A stretch of 64,000 nt of DNA, taken from an uncultured Collinsella sp. Its GTDB lineage: Bacteria > Actinomycetota > Coriobacteriia > Coriobacteriales > Coriobacteriaceae. Of the stretch, positions 2 to 13,797 are shown piece by piece. The DNA lies in contig CALAMK010000018.1 in the NCBI GenBank assembly GCA_937925735.1, forward strand, positions 48,572 to 112,571, written 5' to 3'. The number at the start of each line of letters is the position of its first letter. The stretch's first letter is position 1. The position numbers and the translations under genes were made by a program. The notes under the pieces were generated by a model. It saw only the letters and a program-made list of their open reading frames with translations, was not told the DNA's origin and ran no database searches.

Positions 2-3000
2 ACCATTACGGTGAACGGCACTATTGATCTCAAGGGCACGGGCCTGACGGGTTTCACGCAGGATCGTGCAGACGGCTCGCAAGTTTTCTCGGGAACGTTG
101 AACGGTGGCGGCACAAATGGCAACAGCACAATCAACCTTGCCGTCGGCGAGCCGTACGGCATGCGCGGTGAAGCTGTGCTCGACGGCAATGACACGAGCA
201 ACGGCAACGGCAAAATCTACCGCCACGGCCGCTTGGGCTTGTTCGCGGCCGTCAACGGCGCAACCATCTCCAACGTCACAATCGCTGGCTCCATGAAGTT
301 CGATAACGGTTCGGCTATCGATGCTGGGTCGCTTGCGGGCGCCATCGTCGGCAACCTGTCATTGTCTGGCGTAACGTGCAAAACGAATATCGCGTGTGAT
401 GATACGTTCGGCAACGAAGTGAACATTGGTGGTATTGCGGGCAGCGTGTCGGCGGCTTCTACGGTTGCGTTTGAGGGCAACAGCAAGGCCCAGGCGACCA
501 TTGCTGCAACTAAAACGCTTAACGGTAATATGCGCATTGGCGGCGCCATCGGCAATGTGGGCGACTATACCTCGACATTCAATGTTACGCGCCTCGAAGT
601 TGGCGGATCAATCGAAACCGGCAATTGCGCTAGCGGCAAGATCGCACAGGTCGGTGGCCTTATCGGCCGCATTGTGCAGGGATCGAACGAGAAGTACGTT
701 ACCATTACCGGTCTTAGCTTTAGTGAATTTGCTATGACCGTGGGCAAGAACGGCGACAAGCTCAACGGCGCCGGTGGTCTTCTGGGCTACAGCTGGGGCA
801 ACGCCATCGTCACCATTGGCGATGCTGCTGCGAGCGCCAGCGATAACGCCTATGCCCTCAAAACTGCCAACAACACGACCGTGACCGCAAATAGTTCTAC
901 TGAGGTCGGCGGCCTCGTATACGCCGCCAGTGGCCACTGGATCATCAATAATCATGCTATCAATTTGGGCGGAACCTCCTTTGTCGCTGATAGTGCGACC
1001 ACGCTTGGTGTCCTTATTGCTCGAGGCAGTACATCCAATTCGGATAATAGCTTCGGTGCCGAGACCAACTATAACGGTCTATATCTGGAGGACAGGGCTT
1101 GGTGGGGCACCGCTTATGCTGTGGGTGGCGTGTCTATAACCGCCCCAAAGGTAAAGACATACGACGAATGGCTTGCAAATGGCGTTAAACCCAATAGCAA
1201 GCTGACCGATAACGACTGCAATGCGGTTGTCTCGCTCCACACCGAGGCCGATAACCTGGACATGAGCGGTGATCCCACTAAAGACAATAGTTATCAAAAT
1301 CGAATTGCTCCTGACAAGCTGCCACAAACAAACGGTTCTGTTCGCTACTACTACAATCTGGATAGAGCGTTGGCCGTGGTGACCAACTCAAAAAACGATA
1401 ATGCGACTGCAATGATCACGCCCGAACATCTCGTTTTATGGGCAGCGAGGCAGTATGCTCCGAGCGCGACGTACGACTATCTAACGGGCACCAAAGTGTC
1501 TATCTTTACGAACAATGTGATTGGGCTCGATCGAGGCGAACGGAAAGAAATTAATCTGACGGGTTATAGCTACTACCCTTCAAACCCAAACGGCGATAAT
1601 CCGGTGACCGTCCAAAATGTAAATATCGTCTTTTGCTACTCAAGGATAAGGGCAGAGCAGGAGAGTAATAAGAGAAACGACTCGGCTACCCAGCATGAAA
1701 ATATGCACTGCGGCCTTATTCGCACATGCGATAGGAGCATGACGGTCTCGAATGTGACGCTTTCCGGAACAATCGGCAGGGTAAAAGACGATGCCGCGGA
1801 GGAGATGGACCCAGAAAGCGTGTCGGGTGCGCTGGTGCTTCGTTGCGCCCATGGATCGTCTGGCACCGAAATGGCGAATATCAAAATCGACACTCTAACT
1901 CTTGACGGCTTGCAGGTGGATGGGGCGGAAGACAGGAAATATGCTCCGCTGTTGATCAACGCCATTACAGGGTATGTCAACCTGGACGTGAAAAATGTAA
2001 CGACGTCCAATTATGCAGGCACTTCTGGTGTCAATAAAGTTGCAGCTTCCAGCTTGTTTGGCCGATTGGGCTATGACAAAAATTCCGATCAGGTGACGGC
2101 GAAGTTTGAGCGAATCAGCTTACCCAGCCAAAATAGCAATACGATTTTCACCCATGCGAGCCTGCTGGAGAGTTTTGGCTACAAAAGTACGGGCACGGGT
2201 TCTGCAGACTACATCTTTACTAGGGCTGAAGCCGATGCGGGCAAGGTGACCTACGGATCCGAGATTGATGGGAGTACGGAGTACCCGGACAAGCAGCTTT
2301 GGTATTACGATAAGGCGACATATGGCACCAGGGAAGGGTTTGTAAATGTAAAGGGCGAGTCGACGGATGCCGAAAGGCCTTGGTTTAGCGACTATCTTCC
2401 TTATGTAGCCAAGGGAAAAGCCACCGAAAGCGGCGTTCAGTACCACGAAATCAAAGTCAACCAGCGCATCTCTAACCTGATGATGGGATGCGGTACGTAT
2501 GGCGATCCGTACACCGTTAAGGACGCGACGGAAATGTACACCATAGCTAACTACATCAACAACAGCGTGGCGTTGGATGGCTGGGAAGTCACTATTGTCG
2601 CCGATCAGTCCAGACTGTGCGAGCGGCGTAACGAAACGAAGATCGACAGCGCGAGGACCGACAACGAGGTCGTGTACGTCTATAAGCAAAACAATCCAAG
2701 CGAGAGTAAGTGGGAGAAAAAAGTAGACGATACGACCGATCCCTCGCAGACGCTGAGCGACGAAACCATGCACCGCTATGTACAAAGTGCGTATTACAGC
2801 ATTGAGCCTCCTGAGGGCAATAAGATTACCGTCGATGCGGCCTCGTTTGGCGGATTTGGCAACAAGGCTAATCCGTTCCGCGGCGTTATTGTTGGCGACC
2901 CTAAGTCCTCTGAGCCTGCAACAATTGAGATCAAAAACAACAAGGGCGAGCTTCGCGGCCTCATTCCCTATAGCTATGGCAGCGTGGTGCGCAATCTCAA

Positions 3001-6000
3001 CATCAACTATGTGAATGCGCAGGCGACTATTACTTATTCTGAGAAGGATGCGGACGGCGTCCCGACGGCGTTTTTCGGTGGCGTTATCGGCTGCATTCTT
3101 GGCGGCGATAACATTATCGATCACGTGGCCGTTAATGAGACGACGACCGAAAACCCTACAACGGGATTTACCGTCACGGGCGGTGACGACAAGACGCATC
3201 TTGTTCCCATTGGCGGCTACGTCGGTGCCATTGCGGGCGGCGGTGTGATCTTCCGCAATATGGACAAAAGCGGGAAATCTTCCTGGCGTGCTGGAACTGG
3301 TGACAAATCTCGTGGTCTGGGAAAGGGCAACTTTGATCTCTACAACAATCCCTACGTCGGTCGTGTGATTGATGGCTATGCCTTTAGCGAGGGCTGTAAG
3401 GTTGAAAACGGTGACGCTAACTACAAGATTAACCAGCTCGATGTAGACGACACCGGCTGCGTTACCACCACCGATACGTACATGAAATTCAGCTGGGGTG
3501 CCGGCCAGCAAAACAACAAGGCTCCTAAAACTACAGTTAAAGATCAACAGGGCCTGCTCGTGCTGTCTGCCATTATCAACAGTGGCGCAGGTGCCGGAGC
3601 TGCTCATACCGACGTGACTGATGGCAGGGGCACGTATCGCGGATCACATGCGTATGAGGGCAGTAGCGTTCACGGCCTCATCTCCTCGACGGGATACAAG
3701 TTCGGAAATGAACGGTATGGCAAGGTTCGCAATGCGAATTACGCTGCGGTCGGAAAACCCGACGATGCCGACGCAGCGAGAGATTTCGCGACTTCGGTCA
3801 ACGATGATCTCAAGGCGCCGGGCAACCAGAACTACCAAGGTCCGCTGGACGGCAAAGACGGACAAGATATCAACTCGCCTTACTTGGTTAAGAAATATGC
3901 GACCGATTGGCGCACTGGCTATGTGTGTGCGATGGGCGTTTGCGGCATGGATCTGCAGTTTGAGCAAGGCGTGACCTATGATATGACGAATTACGGCTCG
4001 GGGTTCTTGGGTCTTTCGGGCCGCTATTACTCAAACGCATGCGCGACCGACAAGAAGGTCAACGACAAAGATTTCATCACCCCGGGTATCGCCACTGTCA
4101 AAGGCAACGGCGCAACAATCAAAGTGTCAAACAACGCGCGCGAATACGTGGATGACGACTACTGCGTGGCAGGCGTAGGCGGTCTGTTCAGCACTATCAA
4201 GTTCTACTCGAATGCATTCAATAAGGGAAGCATCGAAGCGAATGACAACGCAAACGTAAACAATCTCAACTTCAGCGACTGCAACATTTCGCTTACCTAT
4301 GTAACTTCCAATGGGGCAGAGCAGTCCACGTCGACGAGCAATACAAACAGCGGCTCGGTGGGAGTCGGCTGCCTTGCGGGCTCAACGGCAAACCAGGGAG
4401 TTTATGACAAGGTTACCTATGGCGTGTTCAAAAACGTCGGCATTTCTAACAGCACCGTAGTCGGAGGCTGCACGGCTGGCGGCCTCATTGGAAGTGCTGG
4501 CCTTATGTCGCGCAGCACCGATGGCGCCAACGGTTCGATTGTGAATTATGGGGGAACGTCCTCTCCTGTGCAGCTCCACGACTGCTCATATACCGACCTT
4601 AACGTCACGGGAAAGAAGAACGTTGGCGGCTACGTGGGTACGGTTGCCTCGGCGTGCGGCGTGTGGACAACCGCGGCCGAAGGAGTGGGCGAAAAGACTG
4701 TTGGCGCGAACTCGACCATAACTGCTACGGGACTAGCCTCAGAATGCCGTGCGGGCGGTGTGTTCGGTTATACCTCCAGCAACGTATCGGTGAACACCAA
4801 TATTGGCACCACGGTAGCCGCCGCATCGAGCACGGCGGTCATCTCCAAGGTCGATGTGCTCATCACCGGAGAGACTGCGGGGCAGTCGGAAGAACAATTG
4901 AAAAATATGGGTGCCGGCGGCGTGGTCGGAAACGCCTATAGCGGTGTTATCTCCATGAGCAACGTGCGCATTGAAGCCGGAGGCGGCACCGAGAACGCCA
5001 CTATTGGCGATAAGACCGGAAAGAATTCGAAGATTCGCAATGCGGGCGGCCTGATCGGGAAGGTTACGAGCGGTGGTAGCGGTTCCAACGCGTACTGGTT
5101 CAAGGACTGCGGCGTCAAGAATATCAACATCGCTGGCACCTACCAATGTTCAGGCGGGCTTATCGGCTACTACTTCAGCAATTTGGGCATAGCCTGCAAC
5201 AACATCGCAATTGAGGGCGCTACGATCAAGGGCAGCTGGAGCGGCGGTCTACTTGGCGCGATTAACAGAGGTTCCGACGTCATCGACGTCACCAACACAA
5301 AGGTTTCTAACACCACGTTTGGCGGAACATCCAACGGTGGCATCGCGGGCGACGGCCGCGGCCAGTTTCATCTGGTAAACGTGCTCATGGACAGCAATAT
5401 CTATAAATCTGACGCTAAGCAGGGTGTGCTCTTGGGCGAGGTCGACACAGGCGGCTATAGCCTTTCCGCAGCGGGCGTGGACGTAAAACCCGGCAAGGGC
5501 AAGACCACGAGCGACCTGCCGCCGATGGTTTACACGACCAATACGGCTGCGGTTAACAAGAAAACCTACATCGCGTTCGGAGACTACAACGACAGGCTCG
5601 ACGTACCCGGCAAGGACACCACACTCTACGGTGCGGACGATGCCGCCACAACGGCGGCAAGCCCGTACGTGACTACGAGCCCCGTGAGCACGCTGGCGGT
5701 GCGTGCCTCCAACGACGACACCACTGATCGCTATCTGTTTGGCGACGGTGTCGCCATTGACACCGCGACGACCATCCAGAGCGAGGCAGGCACCAGTGTT
5801 GCCGGCCGCTACACCTATACCAATATCGGCGGCATCAATGATGCCGGCGCGTACCAAAACACGAGCACCTATAGCGCGGACAGCCCAAGGCCCACTTTCA
5901 ACACCAACAACGTTACTTCGGGCAAGAAGGCCGCAACCGACTTCCCTGTACTCATGATTCCCGGCAACGACACGACGACGGTCGAGAAGTATCTGAACAT

Positions 6001-8311
6001 CGTGACTAACGGCGGCTTTTCCGATGCCCGCCGCCTCAACGGCAGCGCCAAGCACGTGACCGCCACCGCCGAGGTCTTCTCGCTTGCCGATAACGGCGCC
6101 TTCGTCAAGGACGCAAACGCCTCGCAAACGCCCACGCTCAAGGTGCTCAACAACGGCACGAGCTCCATGGTTTTCCGCGCGAGTACCGACTGGGACAACG
6201 AGCGGGGCCGCTTCACGCTGCTCACGGTCACTTTTAGCGAGGCCGGCCAGATCTACCGCGTGCAGGTGCCCATTATCGTTAAGCGCATGCTCGAGATCGA
6301 CTTCACCGCTACCTATTCCGAGGGCGCGAACTTTAAGGCTTCCGACTTTGAGACTAAATACGACAAGCACGTGCTTGTGAGCAGCGGCGATACCATGACC
6401 GGCTACCTTACCTGGACCTATGGTAGCGCCCGGGCCAAGCCAGTCGCTTACGGCTGGAACACGCTGCTCGAAGCCGGCGGCTCCATGGGCCCGCTCAACA
6501 AGAGCATCACCTTTGGTGCCACGCTGCCCGAGGGCACGCAGCTTACGCTCGTGGACACTGCTCATAACAACTGTGAATACCACTGCACGGTCGGCGCAGG
6601 CGGAGCGGCGTCGGTCAAGCTCACCGACTTTGTGGATGCCGGCAACAATGCCTACGTCGAGCCGTGGCTGAGCGAAATCGTGGGCGTGAAGGCCGATGAG
6701 GCCAAGGAGGACAAGCACGGTGCCTGGGTCAAGCTCGCCAATGACGAGGTCAAGGGCAAGAGCCAGGCCGAACTCTCGAAGATGGCTGGCGCCAAGGTCG
6801 ATGGCGCGTACTACCGCGCGCGCACTTCTTCCGACATGACGGGCACGTTCTATACCCTCTCCGTTGCCGAGGAAGAGCCCAAGAGTGAGAACTTCTACTT
6901 GGTGGTGCGCACGCCGGCGGGCTCTGCGGGTGTCAACGGCTACACTGCAACTACGGTGGACACGAGCCTCAACGAGCACATCAACTACCTGCTGCGAGGC
7001 AAGAAAGCAGCCGACGGCAAGGCTGCCGAGGATGGGCACCAGAATACGCCCTCGACCTATAGCGTGGCATCAAACTACACGCACAGCCTCGTTGACAACA
7101 AGCGTAACCTCGTCGACAACAGGGACAGCATCAGCCGGATGGAGCTCAAGGAAGCCACCTATTCGCTTTCCATGAACGTGAGCGACACCGTGACGTTTGA
7201 CTCGAGCCAGCAATACACGAGCTCTGACGCGCTGTATTATCAGCTCGATTCGTCGCTTGTCACCTATCACGATGGCGTCATCGCGGGCTCGGTAGGATAC
7301 CCCACGGGCACGCAGGGCACGTATGAGTTCTACGTTAAGGTGGGTGATAACTACTACACCTGGGGCGGGTCGGGTTGGAATCTGGCCGGCACGAAGGAGA
7401 CCCCAGTGGTGTCGGGCCTTAGTTGGACTGCGAACGGTGGCGACATGTCACTGGTGCTTGCCGATGCTGAGGGTAATCCCATCGACATGTCGGGCCTGCG
7501 CGAGATCGCCAAGAACCATGTCAACGCCTTCACCGTTACCATGAGGGCCGCGCTCACCATGACGGAGCCTGCCTGCCAGGCGGGTATCGTGGCCTCGCAG
7601 AACAGCGGCGCCGACCGCTACACCAAACCCAACTACCGCGCGTACCTTTCCACGCATGCCGACACGCTCAGCACCAGTAGCAACTCGGCATACAACGATG
7701 GCGGCGCCGGCTACTACCGTATGGATGTGGGCTCATCGACCATCGCGCTCGAGGCGTCTAAGAAATCCCAGTTGGGCATCAACATCGATGACCTCAAGTC
7801 CGCTGACGGCGAGATCGCTCTGGTGGGTACCTACGACCTGAGCAAGCTCACGGGCGCCGAGGCTAAGATCGACGCCGCAAACACGGTGACCTACACGCTG
7901 AGCCTGGAGCAGCGGCAAGATAATGGCGGCTATGCTCCGGTCGGCGATATCTCGAACTACATTACGGTGCTCGGCAGCGATTACCTAGGCACGGGTGCGG
8001 CATCCGCCGACGGCAACAGCTATGTGTTCACCGACACCAAGACCAACGGCGCGTTCCTCACGCGCGACGGCAACAGCCTCGCCTTTAAGCATGCCTTCCG
8101 CGTTAAAGTGAATACGAATGTTGAGGGTGAGAACCAAACTTACGCAAACTACCGCTTGGTGCTTACGGCCAATATTATGACCGGCAACGTTGTCGACGAC
8201 ACACCGGTCAACGTTAGCAACCTTGATGGCTATTCGCACTCCGACTACGTGACGTACACGCTAGCGCGCATCAACACCGAGGGCATTCGGCACGAGACGA
8301 AAACCAACTAG
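2..8311 (+). CDS. giant secreted/surface repeat protein, 5'-truncated by window edge (at least 2766 aa); GLUG-motif-like / parallel beta-helix-type Gly-rich repeats
   Basis: Single uninterrupted ORF from window edge to 8311. Protein is dominated by repeated GGLIG/GGIAG/VGGxxG motifs and N/T/S/G-rich composition typical of beta-helical adhesin/GLUG-type repeats. No LPXTG or other sorting motif at C-terminus. Frame continues upstream of position 11, so the N-terminus lies outside the window. Confidence 0.6.
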   Translation, partial: TITVNGTIDLKGTGLTGFTQDRADGSQVFSGTLNGGGTNGNSTINLAVGEPYGMRGEAVLDGNDTSNGNGKIYRHGRLGLFAAVNGATISNVTIAGSMKFDNGSAIDAGSLAGAIVGNLSLSGVTCKTNIACDDTFGNEVNIGGIAGSVSAASTVAFEGNSKAQATIAATKTLNGNMRIGGAIGNVGDYTSTFNVTRLEVGGSIETGNCASGKIAQVGGLIGRIVQGSNEKYVTITGLSFSEFAMTVGKNGDKLNGAGGLLGYSWGNAIVTIGDAAASASDNAYALKTANNTTVTANSSTEVGGLVYAASGHWIINNHAINLGGTSFVADSATTLGVLIARGSTSNSDNSFGAETNYNGLYLEDRAWWGTAYAVGGVSITAPKVKTYDEWLANGVKPNSKLTDNDCNAVVSLHTEADNLDMSGDPTKDNSYQNRIAPDKLPQTNGSVRYYYNLDRALAVVTNSKNDNATAMITPEHLVLWAARQYAPSATYDYLTGTKVSIFTNNVIGLDRGERKEINLTGYSYYPSNPNGDNPVTVQNVNIVFCYSRIRAEQESNKRNDSATQHENMHCGLIRTCDRSMTVSNVTLSGTIGRVKDDAAEEMDPESVSGALVLRCAHGSSGTEMANIKIDTLTLDGLQVDGAEDRKYAPLLINAITGYVNLDVKNVTTSNYAGTSGVNKVAASSLFGRLGYDKNSDQVTAKFERISLPSQNSNTIFTHASLLESFGYKSTGTGSADYIFTRAEADAGKVTYGSEIDGSTEYPDKQLWYYDKATYGTREGFVNVKGESTDAERPWFSDYLPYVAKGKATESGVQYHEIKVNQRISNLMMGCGTYGDPYTVKDATEMYTIANYINNSVALDGWEVTIVADQSRLCERRNETKIDSARTDNEVVYVYKQNNPSESKWEKKVDDTTDPSQTLSDETMHRYVQSAYYSIEPPEGNKITVDAASFGGFGNKANPFRGVIVGDPKSSEPATIEIKNNKGELRGLIPYSYGSVVRNLNINYVNAQATITYSEKDADGVPTAFFGGVIGCILGGDNIIDHVAVNETTTENPTTGFTVTGGDDKTHLVPIGGYVGAIAGGGVIFRNMDKSGKSSWRAGTGDKSRGLGKGNFDLYNNPYVGRVIDGYAFSEGCKVENGDANYKINQLDVDDTGCVTTTDTYMKFSWGAGQQNNKAPKTTVKDQQGLLVLSAIINSGAGAGAAHTDVTDGRGTYRGSHAYEGSSVHGLISSTGYKFGNERYGKVRNANYAAVGKPDDADAARDFATSVNDDLKAPGNQNYQGPLDGKDGQDINSPYLVKKYATDWRTGYVCAMGVCGMDLQFEQGVTYDMTNYGSGFLGLSGRYYSNACATDKKVNDKDFITPGIATVKGNGATIKVSNNAREYVDDDYCVAGVGGLFSTIKFYSNAFNKGSIEANDNANVNNLNFSDCNISLTYVTSNGAEQSTSTSNTNSGSVGVGCLAGSTANQGVYDKVTYGVFKNVGISNSTVVGGCTAGGLIGSAGLMSRSTDGANGSIVNYGGTSSPVQLHDCSYTDLNVTGKKNVGGYVGTVASACGVWTTAAEGVGEKTVGANSTITATGLASECRAGGVFGYTSSNVSVNTNIGTTVAAASSTAVISKVDVLITGETAGQSEEQLKNMGAGGVVGNAYSGVISMSNVRIEAGGGTENATIGDKTGKNSKIRNAGGLIGKVTSGGSGSNAYWFKDCGVKNINIAGTYQCSGGLIGYYFSNLGIACNNIAIEGATIKGSWSGGLLGAINRGSDVIDVTNTKVSNTTFGGTSNGGIAGDGRGQFHLVNVLMDSNIYKSDAKQGVLLGEVDTGGYSLSAAGVDVKPGKGKTTSDLPPMVYTTNTAAVNKKTYIAFGDYNDRLDVPGKDTTLYGADDAATTAASPYVTTSPVSTLAVRASNDDTTDRYLFGDGVAIDTATTIQSEAGTSVAGRYTYTNIGGINDAGAYQNTSTYSADSPRPTFNTNNVTSGKKAATDFPVLMIPGNDTTTVEKYLNIVTNGGFSDARRLNGSAKHVTATAEVFSLADNGAFVKDANASQTPTLKVLNNGTSSMVFRASTDWDNERGRFTLLTVTFSEAGQIYRVQVPIIVKRMLEIDFTATYSEGANFKASDFETKYDKHVLVSSGDTMTGYLTWTYGSARAKPVAYGWNTLLEAGGSMGPLNKSITFGATLPEGTQLTLVDTAHNNCEYHCTVGAGGAASVKLTDFVDAGNNAYVEPWLSEIVGVKADEAKEDKHGAWVKLANDEVKGKSQAELSKMAGAKVDGAYYRARTSSDMTGTFYTLSVAEEEPKSENFYLVVRTPAGSAGVNGYTATTVDTSLNEHINYLLRGKKAADGKAAEDGHQNTPSTYSVASNYTHSLVDNKRNLVDNRDSISRMELKEATYSLSMNVSDTVTFDSSQQYTSSDALYYQLDSSLVTYHDGVIAGSVGYPTGTQGTYEFYVKVGDNYYTWGGSGWNLAGTKETPVVSGLSWTANGGDMSLVLADAEGNPIDMSGLREIAKNHVNAFTVTMRAALTMTEPACQAGIVASQNSGADRYTKPNYRAYLSTHADTLSTSSNSAYNDGGAGYYRMDVGSSTIALEASKKSQLGINIDDLKSADGEIALVGTYDLSKLTGAEAKIDAANTVTYTLSLEQRQDNGGYAPVGDISNYITVLGSDYLGTGAASADGNSYVFTDTKTNGAFLTRDGNSLAFKHAFRVKVNTNVEGENQTYANYRLVLTANIMTGNVVDDTPVNVSNLDGYSHSDYVTYTLARINTEGIRHETKTN

Positions 8312-8318
8312 CTACGCG

Positions 8319-8356
8319 AGGGGCGGCAACCACCCGGTTGCCGCCCTTTTTCTTGT
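8319..8356 (+). terminator. rho-independent terminator of the giant gene
   Basis: GGGCGGCAACC-ACC-CGGTTGCCGCCC hairpin followed by TTTTTCTTGTT, 8 nt after the stop. Confidence 0.8.
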
Positions 8357-8387
8357 TCGCTTGGCCTACTGCTGCCCCAGCTCTCCA

Positions 8388-8490
8388 CCAACTTTCCAGC
8401 TGTCCACTTAACTTACCACTCAAGGTGGAAAGCTGGAAAGTTAAGTGGAAAGCTGGTAAGTTAGGTGGAAAGTTGGAAAGTTGGGAGGTT
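8388..8490. repeat. structured ~80-100 bp repeat, copy A (imperfect palindrome plus iterated GGAAAG(C/T)TGG units), overlaps RBS/start of downstream gene
   Basis: Sequence ccaactttccagctgtccacttaacttaccactcaaggtggaaagctggaaagttaagtggaaagctggtaagttaggtggaaagttggaaagttgggagg. Left arm is the reverse complement of the right arm (CCAGCTKTCCACTTAACTT...). GGAAAG unit repeated 5-6 times. About 92% identical to copy B at 9993-10074. Confidence 0.85.
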
Positions 8491-8494
8491 CGGC

Positions 8495-9964
8495 ATGAAT
8501 GAGGAGTGGTTGGCGCAGGTCATCCATCATCTGCGGACAATAGGAAACGACACCCAGCAGTACGAAGTAAAAGAAGCCAAGGGCGCGCTCCCCAAAAGCA
8601 TCGTCGAGACGCTTTCGGCATTTTCCAACGCGCAGGGCGGCTTTATCATCCTCGGCATTTCCGAAAAGAACGGGTTTATGCCCGTCGAGGGTTTTGATGC
8701 CCGCAAGATGCAAGACGCCCTCTCTTCTGCATGTGAAGAGCTGACGCCCGTTGTGAGGCCGGATATCCAAGTGCTCCCCTTCGAGGGTAAGCTGGTGCTT
8801 TGCGCGCGCATCAAAGAAATGCATCCACGCGATAAACCCTGCTATATTGCGGCACGCGGAATGTACGATTCGTCCTTTATCCGTACGGGCGACGGCGACC
8901 GGCGCATGACTCCCTACGAAATCGATCGCTTTATGGAGGAGCATGTTCAGCCTACATACGACGACGAGCCGGTCGAAGGTGCCACGCTCGATGACCTTGA
9001 CGCCGATCTTTTGCAAGGGTTTATAAAACGCCAGCGCGAGCTACACCCTAGGCTTTTGGGCACCAGAAGCGACGATGAGATTCTTCTTGACCTGCATGTG
9101 ACCAAAAGGGTGGACGACGCAATCGTGCCGACGCTTGCTGCAATTGTCGCGATGGGACGGTTTCCGCAAAAGTTCTTCCCACGTCTCAATGTGACCTTTA
9201 CGGCGTACCCCGGGACCACAAAAACGCAGCGAGTAAGTGATAACAAGCGTTTTGTGGATTCTCAGACCATTTTGGGTCCGATCCCTTTCATGATTGAGGA
9301 CGTGCTTGCCGCCGTTGCGAGAAACACCCGAAACGCAGCGGTTATCGAGGGCGCGTTCCGGAAAGATGTGCCCGATTATCCGCCCGTGGCGCTGCGCGAG
9401 GCGGTGGCGAACGCGCTCATGCACCGCGACTACTCTTCCGCCGCGCGCGGCTCACAAGTGCAGGTCAACCTGTATATCGACCGCGTCGAGATTCTCAATC
9501 CCGGCGGGCTGTACGGCGACGTAACGATCGATTCGCTGGGAGTTTCTGGGGTTTCGTCATCCAGAAACCAGTTCCTTTCAAATATCCTCGAGACCACGCC
9601 GTACCCAGACGGTGGCTACGTGGTCGAAAATCGCGGCACTGGTTATCAGGAGATAGGTGAGCAGCTCGAGCGGGCAAACATGTCGCCGCCCGAACCAAAG
9701 AACTCGACAGTTTCTTTTTCGTTGACGTTCGATAAGCGAAAGATAATGCGGGCGGAACAGGTGACGTCTGTGGGGCATGTGGACGAGGCAATCTTGGATT
9801 ACCTGGCAACACATTCTTCGGCTTCGACCAAGGAGCTCACCGACGCTTCGGGTTTGAGCAGGAGCGCCGTTTCCAACCACATAAAAGGCTTGATTGGTGC
9901 GGGCAAGATTGAGGCGATGGAGCCTCCGCGCAGCCCGCGACAACGGTATCGACTCGCGAAGTAG
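8495..9964 (+). CDS. Schlafen/AlbA_2 (divergent AAA) domain + HATPase_c_4-like + C-terminal winged-helix putative DNA-binding ATPase/regulator (the family often mis-annotated RecG-like)
   Basis: Start ATG 8495 preceded by GGGAGG. N-terminal pattern ...VKEAKGALPKSIVETLSAFSNAQGGFIILGI... matches AlbA_2/Schlafen-like domain. C-terminal HTH-like segment (...LDYLATHSSASTKELTDASGLSRSAVSNHIKGLIGAGKIE...). The ORF-track start 8465 lies inside the repeat. Confidence 0.7.
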   Translation: MNEEWLAQVIHHLRTIGNDTQQYEVKEAKGALPKSIVETLSAFSNAQGGFIILGISEKNGFMPVEGFDARKMQDALSSACEELTPVVRPDIQVLPFEGKLVLCARIKEMHPRDKPCYIAARGMYDSSFIRTGDGDRRMTPYEIDRFMEEHVQPTYDDEPVEGATLDDLDADLLQGFIKRQRELHPRLLGTRSDDEILLDLHVTKRVDDAIVPTLAAIVAMGRFPQKFFPRLNVTFTAYPGTTKTQRVSDNKRFVDSQTILGPIPFMIEDVLAAVARNTRNAAVIEGAFRKDVPDYPPVALREAVANALMHRDYSSAARGSQVQVNLYIDRVEILNPGGLYGDVTIDSLGVSGVSSSRNQFLSNILETTPYPDGGYVVENRGTGYQEIGEQLERANMSPPEPKNSTVSFSLTFDKRKIMRAEQVTSVGHVDEAILDYLATHSSASTKELTDASGLSRSAVSNHIKGLIGAGKIEAMEPPRSPRQRYRLAK

Positions 9965-9992
9965 GGCTGTCCGTCGCCCATGCTTCGGTCTC

Positions 9993-10074
9993 CCAACTTC
10001 TTTCCAGCTTTCCACTTAACTTACCACTTAAGGTGGAAAGCTGGAAAGTTAAGTGGAAAGCTGACATGTTAGGT
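9993..10074. repeat. structured repeat, copy B (direct-orientation copy of 8388-8490)
   Basis: cccaacttctttccagctttccacttaacttaccacttaaggtggaaagctggaaagttaagtggaaagctgacatgttaggtg; same orientation and same internal palindrome as copy A, beginning 29 nt after the stop of the Schlafen-like gene. Confidence 0.85.
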
Positions 10075-10328
10075 GCGGACTGACGAGGGGTTAATAATTG
10101 CACAAACCATACCAGCCAAACAAAAAGATACCCATCTGGTTGGTAAAACACCGTCAATGAGTCGCGAGCCAACTAGCTGCGTAAATAAAGCCTAAAGAAC
10201 CGTTGCAAATGAATGGCAAATACCCAGATGCCGCTGTTACGATTTTCAATTAACTGTTACGCGGGAACAGCAAAATGCTACTATCTAACAAGCACGTAAG
10301 AAAGCAGATTAACGGTTAAGGCTAAGAA

Positions 10329-10733
10329 GTGGCAGGTATGTCGGAAGCAACTAGGACTCGCACGCATGCGCCCGAGGTTAGGCAGCGCGCCGTCGAGATC
10401 CTCCAAGAGGGGGTCGGTCACCGCGCCCTCGCCGCAAAGCTTGGCATTCCCCAGGCCACGGCTCGTCAGTGGGCCCGCGCATATGCCGTGGGCGGTACCG
10501 ACGCCGTGCTCAATGCGGGCGCTCGCCATCACACCTATTCGTACGACGTAAAGCTCGCCGTGGTTAAGGACCGTTTGGAAAACGGCCTGACGGTTCGCGA
10601 GGCTATGATCAAGCACAAGATTCCCAGCGAGTCTTCAGTCAAGGCTTGGTGCCGCCAGTATCGCGAGAGCGGTGAGTCCGCGCTGGTCGATAAGCCGCGC
10701 GGTCGCAAGCCGCGCGTTAAAAAGGCGGAATAG
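10329..10733 (+). CDS. stand-alone IS3-family OrfA-like helix-turn-helix protein (transposase helper remnant; no catalytic OrfB partner present)
   Basis: 134 aa with two HTH-like segments and a KPRGRKPR basic tail typical of IS3/IS150 OrfA. No DDE transposase ORF follows. Lies in a lower-GC tract (10060-10330 AT-rich). Confidence 0.5.
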   Translation: MAGMSEATRTRTHAPEVRQRAVEILQEGVGHRALAAKLGIPQATARQWARAYAVGGTDAVLNAGARHHTYSYDVKLAVVKDRLENGLTVREAMIKHKIPSESSVKAWCRQYRESGESALVDKPRGRKPRVKKAE

Positions 10734-10914: not shown

Positions 10915-13797
10915 ATGACGCTACTGTATTTCCTTACCCTGTTTCCGCTGGTGCCGGCGCTGGGCATGCTGCTCGCGCGCGGTGACCGCGCCCGCGATGC
11001 GGTGGGGCTCATAGGTTCCGGCATCATTATGGCGGTGACAGTTGTAGTCGCCGTCATGTTTTTTGGCGCGGGCCCGCAGAGCTTTGAGGTTGCCTCCGGC
11101 ACCTCGCATGTGCTCTCGATCATCAGCTCCGCCATCGATGTCATCCTGTGCGCCGTCATCCTATACAACGCGTATAAATATAGGAACGCGCTCACCACGG
11201 TGCTCGGCATAGTCCAGCTGGTGGGCTCGCTCGCCTTTGCAGCCATGACGCTGCCCGCGGCCGAAGCCGTCACCGCAACGCCGCTCTACCTGGACTATAT
11301 GAGCGTGATCATGGTCCTCGCCGTCGGCATTGTCGGCAGCCTGATCTGCGTGTATGCCCTGGGCTACATGAAGGACTTCCAGGCCCACGACGAGCACGAG
11401 GCCGCGCTGCGCGGGCAGACCGCGCCCGACCGACGGCCGCAGTTCCTGGCGCTTATGTTCCTGTTCCTCTCGGCCATGTTCGTCATCGTGACGAGCGACA
11501 ACCTTGAGTGGTTGTTCTGCGGCTGGGAAATCACCACCGTGTGCTCGTTCCTCATGATTGGCTACACGCGCACGCCCGAGGCCATCAAGAACGCCTTTAC
11601 CCAGATCATCCTCAACATGCTGGGCGGCATCGCGTTTTTGGTCGGACTCATGTACCTGCACGTTAACGGCATGCCGCTGACCATCTCGGGCATGATTGAG
11701 CTTTCCGGCGCCGGAACCGCGCAATCCGCGCTGCTGGTGATGCCGGTCATTCTGCTGTCGCTCGCCGCACTCACCAAGGCCGCACAGATGCCGTTCCACA
11801 CTTGGCTGCTTGGCGCCATGGTTGCCCCCACGCCCACGAGCGCCCTGCTGCACTCGTCCACCATGGTCAAAGCCGGCGTGTTCCTGATGGTCAAGCTGAG
11901 CCCGCTCTATGCCATCTATCCCGTGACCGGCTTTATGGTCACGAGCGTGGGTGCCATCACGTTTTTGCTCGCCGCCCTCATGGCCATCTCGCAGAGCAAC
12001 GCCAAGCGCGTGCTCGCGTACTCCACCATTTCCAACTTGGGCCTCATCAGTGCCTGCTTGGGTGTCGGCGCGCCCGAGGCCGTATGGGCGGCCATCTTCC
12101 TGATCCTGTTCCACACGGTGGCAAAGTCGCTGCTGTTCCTGTGCGTGGGCACGGCCGAGCATCATATCGGCAGCCGCAATATCGAGGACATGGACGGTAT
12201 GTTCAGCCGCATGCCGCACCTGACGCGCCTGATGATGCTGGGCATCATGGGCATGTTTGTGGCGCCGTTTGGCATGCTCGTGTCCAAGTGGGGCGCCCTG
12301 GTGGCGTTCGCGCAGACCGGCAACGTGCTCATGATCATGGTGTTGGCCTTTGGCTCGGCTGCGACGTTTTACTTCTGGGGCAAGTGGCTTGCCAAGCTTT
12401 CGGGCGTCGACCCCACGGCTCAAAACGTTGAGGTCAATGTCCATAAGACCGAATGGATGGCGCTCAACACCATCGCCGCGCTGCTGATTCTGTGCTGCGT
12501 GGCCTTCCCGCTCATCTCGAGCGGTCTGGTGTCGCCTTACCTGGCCATGGTGTTTGGCCGCGTGCCGTACGTTATTGGCAAGGACGCCATGTATCTGATG
12601 GTGGTTATCGTGGCGTTTATCGCCGTGGTGCTGCTGACTTCATTCCGCGTGAGCAACAAACCGCACGTCAACGTGTACCTTTCGGGCGTGGGAACCGACA
12701 AATATCGCCATTTCCGCGGCTCGATGGGTCACGAGGTAAAGGCCGAAAAGCGCAATTGGTACTCGGAGGACGCCCTTGGCGAGAAGCGTATTGGCCCCGC
12801 GGGTAGCGTCGTGTGCTGCAGTATTATTTTGTTTGCGCTGCTGTGTTGCGCGTGGATTGGGCCCGAGCGGCTTGCCATGAGCGCGCCCTCGGTGCTGCGT
12901 GGCAAGTATTTTGAAGGTTCGGGTGTCGTGGGCATCTTTATTGGCACCGTGGCGTTTGCCCTGCTGGCGCCGCTTGTGGGCGGCCTGATCGACGGCGTTG
13001 ACCGTAAGCTTTCGGCTCGCATGCAGGGCCGTGTGGGCCCGCGCTTGCTGCAGCCCTTCTACGACGTTGCCAAGCTGCTGCGCAAGGCCCCCGCCAGCGT
13101 AAACACCATGGACGATACCTACATGGCGTGCGCGCTCATCTTTACCGTGGTGGGCGGCGGCATCTTTGTGTCGGGTTCCAACACGCTGTTGTGCGCCTTT
13201 ATGGTGACGCTCGCCGCGATCTTTGTGGTGTTGGCGTCCGCCTCGACGCAAAGCCCGTTTGCCCAGGTTGGCGCCGACCGCGAGCTGCTGCAGGTTATGA
13301 GTTACGAGCCCGCCGTTCTGCTGATGAGCGTGGGTCTGTACCTTGCCACCGATAGCTTCGATTCCATCGCCGTGACGGGGCAGTCGGCCCCCATCATCGT
13401 GTACAGCGCGCCCATTTTCCTCGCGCTGCTCGCGGTGCTCACCATCAAGCTGCGCAAGTCGCCGTTTGACCTTTCGTACTCGCATCACGCGCATCAGGAG
13501 ATCGTCCAGGGCGTTGCCACCGAGATGAGCGGCGGCACGCTGGCCAAGATGACCCTTATGCACTGGTGCGAGACCGTGCTGTTTTTGATGTGGGTGGGCA
13601 TGTTCTTTGTCTGGGACAACCCGGTGAGCTGGGTGGTCGCCCTGGTCGTGATGGCTGCGACGTACTTTGTCGAGGTGCTGATCGACAACACCTTCGCGCG
13701 CAGCACCTGGCGCAGCTGCTTTAAGCTCGGATGGGGCGTGGCGCTGGTGTTTGGCCTGCTCAACCTTATGCCCATCCTCGTCGACGTGTTTATTTAG
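10915..13797 (+). CDS. Ech/Hyc-type hydrogenase membrane subunits, fused EchA (NuoL/MnhA-type antiporter-like) + EchB (NuoH/HycD-like)
   Basis: 960-aa polytopic protein. N-terminal ~620 aa has NuoL/HycC-like signatures (WLFCGWEITTVCSFLMIGY...). C-terminal ~300 aa has NuoH/HycD signatures (RKLSARMQGRVGPRLLQPFYDVAKLLRK...SPFDLSYSHHAHQEIVQGVATEMSGG). Single frame, no stop between the two parts. Good RBS GGGGGAG before ATG 10915. Confidence 0.8.
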   Translation: MTLLYFLTLFPLVPALGMLLARGDRARDAVGLIGSGIIMAVTVVVAVMFFGAGPQSFEVASGTSHVLSIISSAIDVILCAVILYNAYKYRNALTTVLGIVQLVGSLAFAAMTLPAAEAVTATPLYLDYMSVIMVLAVGIVGSLICVYALGYMKDFQAHDEHEAALRGQTAPDRRPQFLALMFLFLSAMFVIVTSDNLEWLFCGWEITTVCSFLMIGYTRTPEAIKNAFTQIILNMLGGIAFLVGLMYLHVNGMPLTISGMIELSGAGTAQSALLVMPVILLSLAALTKAAQMPFHTWLLGAMVAPTPTSALLHSSTMVKAGVFLMVKLSPLYAIYPVTGFMVTSVGAITFLLAALMAISQSNAKRVLAYSTISNLGLISACLGVGAPEAVWAAIFLILFHTVAKSLLFLCVGTAEHHIGSRNIEDMDGMFSRMPHLTRLMMLGIMGMFVAPFGMLVSKWGALVAFAQTGNVLMIMVLAFGSAATFYFWGKWLAKLSGVDPTAQNVEVNVHKTEWMALNTIAALLILCCVAFPLISSGLVSPYLAMVFGRVPYVIGKDAMYLMVVIVAFIAVVLLTSFRVSNKPHVNVYLSGVGTDKYRHFRGSMGHEVKAEKRNWYSEDALGEKRIGPAGSVVCCSIILFALLCCAWIGPERLAMSAPSVLRGKYFEGSGVVGIFIGTVAFALLAPLVGGLIDGVDRKLSARMQGRVGPRLLQPFYDVAKLLRKAPASVNTMDDTYMACALIFTVVGGGIFVSGSNTLLCAFMVTLAAIFVVLASASTQSPFAQVGADRELLQVMSYEPAVLLMSVGLYLATDSFDSIAVTGQSAPIIVYSAPIFLALLAVLTIKLRKSPFDLSYSHHAHQEIVQGVATEMSGGTLAKMTLMHWCETVLFLMWVGMFFVWDNPVSWVVALVVMAATYFVEVLIDNTFARSTWRSCFKLGWGVALVFGLLNLMPILVDVFI

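Follow-up and report, generated by a model that had tools for sequence, protein, structure and literature searches.

In phage lambda the tripartite operators OL and OR stand on either side of the cI repressor gene, and CI mediates looping between them. Here we describe a bacterial gene that may be organised along comparable lines. It lies in a 64,000-nucleotide (nt) stretch of DNA from an uncultured Collinsella sp. (GenBank contig CALAMK010000018.1, positions 48,572 to 112,571 of the forward strand; "the window" below), encodes a Schlafen-type protein (gene slfn), and stands between two direct copies of a structured repeat, referred to as array U (upstream) and array D (downstream). Bacterial Schlafens are phage-activated tRNases related to the human antiviral SLFN proteins, and prokaryotic Schlafens (pSlfns) are a defence family with the catalytic motif Ex4(E/D)xK (PMC13056530). 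Activity of the Slfn domain as a phage-activated, Mn-dependent tRNase that aborts infection was shown for fusions to Ig-like and DUF262 domains; the HisKinase-HTH (helix-turn-helix) architecture makes up 19.2% of 5,930 pSlfns and is the second commonest (PMC13056530). Flanking repeats, operators and autoregulation are not mentioned in that study (Perez Taboada et al. 2026, Nat Microbiol, PMC13056530).

The window protein is a member of this published HisKinase-HTH class. Like the other members it has an N-terminal PF04326 Slfn/AlbA_2 domain of more than 100 amino acids (aa), an acidic-x4-acidic-x-K motif and a HisKinase-like ATPase combined with an HTH; in contrast to the published motif its first acidic residue is Asp instead of Glu, and its neighbourhood in the window is no defence island. 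The original prediction, made from the sequence of the window, had considered the family poorly characterised, a description that no longer applies. The likeness to the lambda immunity region is one of layout: the gene of a DNA-binding protein lies between two multi-site arrays of what is here a predicted recognition sequence of its own, 1.6-2.4 kb apart, and repressor/operator specificity co-varies between related elements. The slfn arrays differ from the lambda operators in being direct duplicates that evolve in concert, each a long hairpin-forming palindrome. The slfn protein (Slfn nuclease, GHKL-like domain and winged HTH, wHTH) is unrelated to CI, no divergent lytic promoters are evident, and binding and looping at slfn are putative.

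This array-gene-array bracket is conserved in relatives of the window gene and has apparently not been described before: no published description of a conserved, co-evolving bracket was found in the searchable literature. On balance, and with modest confidence, we regard the locus as probably a self-contained accessory module, in which a pSlfn nuclease gene is bracketed by the recognition arrays of its own wHTH.

The Schlafen-type gene and its two arrays

The module and its immediate borders comprise the following features:
8318-8355, plus strand: intrinsic terminator of the giant upstream gene, a 14-pair stem followed by a T-run; left limit of the module
8385-8487, plus strand: array U, with its left arm at about 8388-8419 and its right arm at about 8425-8487 with 20-nt periodicity; the last unit enters the ribosome-binding site (RBS)
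8483-8488, plus strand: RBS GGGAGG, 6 nt 5' of the ATG and within the end of array U, as read from the sequence
8495-9964, plus strand: Schlafen-type gene, 489 aa, supported by Pfam, homologue alignment and an AlphaFold2 (AF2) model
9993-10075, plus strand: array D, in the orientation of array U, beginning 29 nt 3' of the stop codon
10076-10337, plus strand: AT-rich leader of the HTH gene, GC 0.435; core, outside the module
10338-10733, plus strand: 131-aa HTH_28/HTH_23 protein (Pfam) with an IS3-OrfA-like fold; core, heading the hydrogenase operon

That two direct structured repeats bracket a gene for an AlbA_2, HATPase and wHTH protein, as originally predicted, was borne out by a repeat search, a profile hidden Markov model (HMM) and Pfam alike. 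In the repeat search array U (8385-8467) and array D (9993-10075) aligned in direct orientation over 83 nt at 90% identity, and array U runs on to 8487 with additional 20-nt units. A 32-mer common to the two occurs exactly twice in the 64 kb, against 0.00 occurrences expected from shuffles, and all six window matches of a 16-mer unit pair (with up to 2 mismatches) fall inside the arrays. The profile HMM, which was built from Collinsella repeat copies, scored array U (8384-8484) at 105.8 bits on the plus strand and 50.9 bits on the minus strand, and array D (9991-10075) at 92.6 and 42.2 bits, respectively. Plus-strand scores about twice those of the minus strand indicate that the two arrays have the same polarity and confirm their palindromic character. 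The profile found no site in the window beyond these two and no extra site across the 1.32 Mb of DNA examined.

Each array is an imperfect palindrome, the left arm consisting of 3 inverted units and the right arm of 3-6 direct units of the type GTGGAAAGCT/GGWAAGTTAR. Single-strand folding yielded -32.1 and -23.9 kcal/mol for U and D (z = -6.7 and -6.5 compared to shuffles); Rfam returned nothing for the repeats but sub-threshold matches to miRNA-precursor hairpins, which carry no meaning. Among the Collinsella copies the promoter-proximal part of array U is near-invariant, and the number of units varies on one arm only. No canonical terminator was found between the slfn gene, array D and the next gene, whereas both neighbouring genes have one.

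Profile searches, which the original prediction had proposed as a check together with structure prediction, gave the make-up of the protein. SLFN_AlbA_2 was placed at residues 20-139 (E 2.2e-15; 57.6 bits against a cut-off of 25.3), HATPase_c_4 at residues 319-412 (E 2.8e-21) and HTH_24 at residues 430-473 (E 5.6e-6) of a C-terminal wHTH that spans 430-489. The order is therefore AlbA_2/Slfn nuclease-like domain, linker, GHKL-like HATPase_c_4 domain and wHTH. The residues D19-x4-E24-x-K26 are invariant across 21 homologues, with Asp in the first acidic position as opposed to Glu in the published motif, and the start site is supported by homologues that begin at the same MNEEWL residues. The AF2 model (mean predicted local distance difference test score 74.7) is confident for Slfn, linker and wHTH only, the GHKL-like domain being poorly modelled. 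In this model the N-terminal domain matched the folds of SLFN13, SLFN5, SLFN11 and SAMD9, and the best structural match over the entire chain was DIP2311 (PDB 3lmm; Foldseek E 8e-18). PDB sequence matches were 2kyy and 3lmm, the latter to the central region. The window protein thus resembles DIP2311 and the COG2865 "RecG-like / transcriptional regulator" proteins in whole-chain structure and central-region sequence; DIP2311 is a structural-genomics entry with no assigned function, and so adds no mechanism. PADLOC gave only partial matches of the protein itself, to pAgo/Aga fusion models, and neither a domain scan nor a fold search of the protein revealed a known transposase or recombinase fold, a Y1 HUH domain or TnpB.

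The bracket in other lineages

Homologues of 66-75% identity were found in four unrelated contexts, a named C. intestinalis genome and an Eggerthellaceae metagenome-assembled genome (MAG) among them. Each has its own direct repeat pair of 70-97 nt, at 93-98% identity, and each repeat is again a palindrome of phased units. The flanked relatives include:
L083: 97 nt at 98% identity
L085: 70 nt at 93% identity
L088: flanking repeats present
L092 (C. intestinalis): 91 nt at 96% identity
Bifidobacterium sp. ESL0728, a named isolate: 230-nt duplicated flank, consisting of two arrays plus a spacer
B. thermophilum, a named isolate: flanking repeats present
Acetoanaerobium noterae (Clostridia), 34% protein identity: about 105 nt at 82-91%, each with 26-nt inverted arms

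When upstream and downstream flanks of 68 further loci were aligned locally, the best scores were bimodal, at 33-92 in flanked loci and 8-18 in the others. In the protein tree all lineages of the clade with at least 60% identity are flanked, and more distant clades are patchy. Arrays of like build that are present upstream only were seen in several more distant relatives (L127, L141/143, L146, L147, L151 and L153); upstream is the normal place for an autoregulatory operator. In about 140 loci the cargo between the repeats always belonged to the slfn family.

The architecture of the arrays is constant and their units are lineage-specific: GGAAAG; GGTAAGT/GGGAAGT; GTTAAG/GCGAAGT; GATGGAAAG; GTTGAGAGCT; GTGTTGAGTGTT; AGTAGTCAAATAG. 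The class of unit goes with the predicted recognition helix of the wHTH, K464 occurring with GGAAAG, N464 with GG[T/G]AAGT, R464 with GTTAAG/GCGAAGT, and an SVGGxRR helix with GTGTTGAG-type units. In every lineage the two copies are more alike than either is to the upstream or downstream copy of another lineage. This amounts to concerted evolution of the two, which a permutation test also detected within Collinsella (5 of 5000). The Collinsella profile still picks up the arrays of other genera, which indicates that they are homologous. Taken together, the lineage-specific units, the concerted evolution, the tracking of the recognition helix and the upstream-only arrays point to cognate protein-binding arrays, and as these occur nowhere else in the DNA examined, no regulon is visible beyond the protein's own gene. 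The repeats are accordingly specific to the family, travel with the gene into unrelated contexts, and are no generic recombination sites. Some units (TGTCCAC/TTTCCAC) are similar to actinobacterial DnaA boxes, a reading that was dropped because other lineages use unrelated units.

In B. eulemuris (MWWZ01000012.1; L177) a 114-nt direct repeat at 98% identity was observed at 2700-2860 and 4487-4680; it belongs to another family (units CGACTTCGCTCGGAATGACG...), and a unit-type palindromic array (GATAGAAAGT/ATTAAGT) is present there upstream only.

Plasmid homologues are all below 35% identity. On a Streptococcus dysgalactiae plasmid (NZ_CP044103.1; L193:2039-2268) 21 tandem copies of TAGGATACAG, preceded by an inverted CCTATCC...GATAGG, directly follow the stop codon, and Rhodothermus marinus pRHOM17201 (L191:1918-1988) has ATTGGGCAA-type units of 9-11 nt at the 3' end; neither of these remote homologues (27-30% identity) has an upstream/downstream array pair. 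Those on proteobacterial plasmids (23-28% identity) lie in TrlF-ATPase/type I restriction-modification (R-M) operons and have no flanking repeats. Four of them, on plasmids of E. coli (pNDM102337), Pseudomonas cerasi, Burkholderia thailandensis and Arcobacter (L194, L196, L197 and L198), match without the wHTH part and are translationally coupled to a TrlF-family AAA-like ATPase, or in Arcobacter to a DUF87 protein instead. Restriction genes adjoin them, namely type I R-M subunits in E. coli and Arcobacter and a PLD-domain restriction endonuclease in B. thailandensis. They are a different, operon-embedded subfamily in clear defence contexts. Viral contigs contained no repeat copy and no close protein homologue, and yielded two remote matches at 25-28% identity. 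As a test of recent mobility, close relatives in differing contexts were looked for, and none was found among the pairs with usable flanks.

For about a quarter of the best 120 homologues the longest contig measured only 1.6-1.8 kb. Short Logan contigs (L084, L086, L087 and L093) begin and end inside the flanking palindromes, L084 for one beginning at the centre of the upstream array, and short-read assembly seems to break at the bracket.

Arrival and loss of the module in Collinsella

A degenerate 28-mer from the repeat retrieved 81 stretches from a collection of species-representative genomes, nearly all of them Collinsella, and four window proteins were mapped onto these loci. Each genome has a single 28-mer locus, typically with two matches 1588 or 1608 bp apart. 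With no other match in the 1.32 Mb, this speaks against a repeat scattered over the genome, an outcome which the original prediction had named as contrary to it. Gene order is nearly everywhere giant gene, repeat, slfn, repeat, HTH, hydrogenase; the full layout is present in about 60 Collinsella genomes, and the site is one and the same across about 76 Collinsella genome loci. The slfn gene is missing from 12 Collinsella genomes, and each of these empty sites keeps one solo repeat, the state that the original prediction had expected of a comparison between strains.

Solo repeats lie directly 3' of the equivalent terminator, between that of the giant gene and the ...GACGAGGGGTTAATAATT flank which normally follows array D, and the AT-rich leader is kept to their right. 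In two genomes (L066 and L016) the solo copy is chimeric, an upstream-specific unit (GGTAAGTTAGG) being followed by downstream-specific units (GGGAAGCAAGTGGAAAGCTGACATG); the register of the crossover is variable. On a tree of the adjacent HTH-hydrogenase (hth-ech) DNA the empty sites are interspersed with occupied ones and require at least about 8 independent events. Given the chimeric solo copies and these repeated events on the flanking-gene tree, presence and absence are best explained by recurrent deletion between the direct copies U and D. The process is like the formation of solo long terminal repeats (LTRs), in that an occupied site has two direct copies and an empty one a single, possibly chimeric, copy, with multiple independent losses; unlike LTR elements, the slfn module has no reverse transcription or transposition machinery, and the analogy extends to the loss process only. 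Divergence of slfn follows that of the flanks (r = 0.75) with outliers, such as L065/L075, where slfn is 100% and the flanking core 91% identical; these outliers indicate allele exchange.

An outgroup (L183) retains the HTH gene (77% identity), the AT-rich leader and the hydrogenase operon, and has neither an slfn gene nor a repeat, the profile HMM included. Upstream of its HTH leader are a tRNA gene and a pantothenate kinase gene instead. The leader is conserved in L183 at 1520-1777, and homology resumes at GAGGGGTTAATAATT, at about 10085 in the window. Since slfn and repeat are both missing there, the repeat is no ancient regulatory sequence belonging to the hydrogenase operon; the comparison as a whole indicates that it arrived with slfn, and that solo copies are footprints of deletion. 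The slfn module is accessory, its gene having arrived together with its repeats. Of the originally predicted recombination-delivered mobile islet, the accessory nature and the joint arrival with the repeats stand, the outgroup lacking both; the repeats, by contrast, are the gene's own and operator-like, and no sign of current mobility was found. The AT-rich stretch and the IS3-OrfA-like HTH gene, which the original prediction had noted after the gene, are core and not part of the islet: both are conserved in the module-free outgroup, and their reading as mobility scars was rejected. Where Collinsella has the giant gene and the slfn module, the outgroup has a tRNA gene followed by a terminator (L183:1262-1335), which marks the stretch 5' of the hydrogenase operon as a zone of variable insertions.

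Some loci depart from the usual layout. A split tblastn match in L078 (2395-3860) marks an apparent frameshift of slfn, a cluster of 342-aa truncated slfn proteins (P0070) exists, and the slfn match in L107 and L115 is 1466 nt long, which is not a multiple of three; frameshifted copies fit a gene that is dispensable or counter-selected. Collinsella-type loci, with slfn, HTH and hydrogenase genes 95-98% identical, were also found on contigs labelled Treponemataceae (L005, CAVCKO010000036.1) and "bacterium" (L010, CAVCHM010000017.1), which are probably mis-binned Collinsella DNA. In a Collinsella MAG (CALEDY010000127.1; L072:2553-3999), and also in L010, L049 and L064, the giant gene and the slfn module are separated by an additional segment of about 1.6 kb, in which a degraded AAA_14/DUF4143-type ATPase is bracketed by a different 32-nt direct repeat, ATRCGTATCTGAACTARCTGTCCAGCGGGGTC, at 94% identity, plus one inverted copy; the ATRCGTATCTGAACTARCTGTCCAGCGGGGTC motif also occurs to the left of solo repeats in L024, L034, L054 and L055. 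This segment may represent a second gene type with flanking repeats of its own. Apparent "6.4-kb insertions" in some Collinsella contigs proved to be an artefact of adjacent 8-kb chunks, the true spacing being 1588 bp.

The lower-GC pocket originally predicted was found in part. The slfn gene has a GC content of 0.559 compared to 0.604 for the whole window, and its GC at third codon positions (GC3) is 0.657 compared to 0.76-0.87 in eleven neighbouring core genes; the shift is modest, however, and is also seen in the giant upstream gene. That gene had been labelled an adhesin, which was not confirmed, its open reading frame (ORF) having no Pfam match. The ORF (11-8311, plus strand) covers 2766 aa in the window and is called as 3551 aa in L001; the C-terminal 424 aa range from 39% to 100% identity among Collinsella genomes with common downstream genes, and the product is a hypervariable giant protein. 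Downstream, the "ech operon" is by Pfam a group-4-type hydrogenase cluster. Its first gene (10915-13797, plus strand) encodes a 960-aa fusion, in one polypeptide, of a NuoL/Mrp-antiporter-like module (Proton_antipo_M, 194-481) and a NuoH-like module (NADHdh, 681-952). In other genomes (L182-L189) paralogues of the 131-aa double-HTH protein, 70-73% identical, head ABC-transporter operons, and the IS3-OrfA-like double-HTH proteins seem to make up a small-regulator family, not the remnant of a transposase.

Explanations for the bracket

Under the reading of the locus as a module with cognate binding arrays, several protomers would bind the units (about 12 bp) of each array through the wHTH. Array U overlaps the 5' end and RBS region of the gene and could confer negative autoregulation on a potentially toxic nuclease; autorepression is suggested because the array runs into the RBS. 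Array D would be bound as well, and might be bridged to array U through a 1.6-kb loop, as lambda CI does at OL/OR; alternatively, bound array D may serve as a roadblock or terminator. The lack of a canonical terminator 3' of slfn is consistent with array D being bound in any of these capacities. The bracket might insulate the gene from outside transcription wherever it lands, and gene conversion would keep both copies alike, their homology in turn making RecA-type deletion frequent.

A number of points weigh against this reading. A sigma-70 consensus scan found no promoter in or 5' of array U, and overlap of the array with a promoter is presumed from position alone. An ordinary autoregulator needs an upstream site only, and binding alone does not explain a near-identical downstream copy that includes a non-palindromic spacer. 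The covariation of helix and unit is confounded with phylogeny and comprises only about 10 lineages, and the direct repeats around the gene in B. eulemuris and L157 are of another kind, not built of units. All 21 aligned sequences have Asn (N335) where GHKL ATPases have the G1-box Asp, which renders ATPase activity uncertain, and the HisKinase fusions tested gave no protection against the phages used (PMC13056530). Proximity to known defence genes is usual in the pSlfn family though not obligatory; among the genes from 1 to 25.9 kb, the neighbourhood is not a defence island, and the neighbours are the giant unannotated protein, the HTH protein, hydrogenase subunits, a two-component system and ABC transporters.

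One rival explanation is that the arrays act as nucleic acid hairpins, with a hairpin in the 5' untranslated region and a terminating or stabilising one at the 3' end (an "I-shaped" terminator), perhaps as substrate or decoy of the Schlafen RNase and with feedback on its own mRNA. The strong folding of both copies (z about -6.5) is in keeping with this, as is the position of array D, 29 nt from the stop codon of a gene which, unlike both its neighbours, has no canonical terminator; the Slfn domain family, moreover, cleaves structured RNA (PMC13056530). We nonetheless consider it unlikely: simple terminators need neither 3-7 phased units, nor unit sequences that track the recognition helix, nor a second copy upstream, and variation of units on one arm weakens the stem without loss of the element. 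Array D may, on the other hand, have no function at all, being a neutral by-product of operator duplication (for instance a tandem duplication after which the second gene copy was lost) that is kept alike by gene conversion. The duplicated segment can indeed include a non-palindromic spacer, as in the 230 nt of Bifidobacterium sp. ESL0728, sister lineages have the upstream array only, and the B. eulemuris flanks belong to another repeat family. The bracket is found, though, in all sampled lineages of the Coriobacteriia-Bifidobacterium clade and recurs at 34% identity in a genome of the Clostridia, and it has persisted even though direct repeats are prone to deletion (12 losses) and long palindromes are generally unstable. 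Such persistence argues for selection on the bracket, and we regard a functionless array D as improbable.

Mobility was also considered. The protein might act on its own hairpin arrays to release a gene-plus-array circle and insert it anew, solo arrays being the footprints of excision; the module would then be a transposable or cassette element of a new kind. Occupation of unrelated genomic sites in different genera, the co-arrival of gene and arrays at the Collinsella site, the existence of solo copies, the low GC3 of slfn, and alleles that are sometimes far closer than their flanks (L065/L075) could all be accounted for in this way, as could ends that are near-identical within each lineage and, like those of IS200/IS605, are hairpins in direct orientation. 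An excisable cassette of this kind is still rather unlikely, in our estimate. There is a single copy per genome at one fixed site in about 76 Collinsella genomes, every close pair with usable flanks has a common context, and no known transposase or recombinase fold was found. Viral contigs have no repeat or close homologue, plasmid homologues stay below 35% identity, relatives with upstream-only arrays would be immobile, and homologous recombination accounts better than site-specific cleavage for solo copies that are chimeric and vary in the register of the crossover. The unrelated sites across genera, the co-arrival, the homogenised direct hairpin ends and the solo arrays led us to entertain as well, as a doubtful proposition, an autonomous and ancient array-gene-array element whose protein acts on its flanking hairpin arrays. 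The forms it might take are equally speculative: cruciform- or hairpin-directed cleavage, a gene-plus-array circle that is excised and re-integrates, or an ATP-driven, topology-sensing bridging that licenses the nuclease. RAYT/REP (REPIN) systems offer a parallel, in that a single-copy gene has cognate palindromic hairpin repeats on its flanks, and these diversify together with the lineage of the protein. In contrast to these and to IS200/IS605, however, the slfn module has no Y1 HUH transposase or TnpB, its repeats occur at the gene flanks and are not dispersed, and its arrays, 70-110 nt long, are built of phased units and not of one short hairpin; a reading as insertion sequence (IS), miniature inverted-repeat transposable element or REP was rejected for want of a transposase and of dispersed copies. 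Integron cassettes, finally, also consist of a gene followed closely by a structured imperfect palindrome, here of attC-like length, with a second copy upstream and one copy retained at empty sites, and the window repeat contains strings resembling GTTRRRY/RYYYAAC (GTTAAGT, GTTAGGT, ACTTAAC). An integron-type cassette, or an attC cluster without integrase, is nevertheless extremely improbable, and was rejected. There is no IntI: no tyrosine recombinase was found within 8 kb upstream or 15 kb downstream of the module, and a scan of the genes from 1 to 25.9 kb showed no recombinase domain. The core-like strings arise as a by-product of the unit in the window; the arrays of L116, L126, L140, L118 and L120 lack them, so that relatives have no conserved R''(RYYYAAC)/R'(GTTRRRY) core; the cargo is always of one gene family with which the repeats co-vary, and the upstream copy overlaps the RBS of that very gene.

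HisKinase and HisKinase-HTH are the commonest pSlfn architectures, and have been without a demonstrated trigger, target or role for the HTH. The bracket suggests such a role, the reading of a lineage-specific array around the protein's own gene, which is directly testable; the arrays supply defined DNA and natural specificity variants for work on binding, looping, regulation and swaps. Were the locus an autonomous element, it would represent either a mobile cassette of a new class or a defence gene that has its trigger read out on its own bracket. Assembly breaks at the palindromes may conceal the context of slfn-family genes in metagenomes, where many members are on contigs of about 1.6 kb. 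More generally, a gene that is potentially toxic and was acquired horizontally may bring its own control or insulation sites with it, and the ease with which this gene is lost would be explained by a bracket that doubles as a substrate for deletion.

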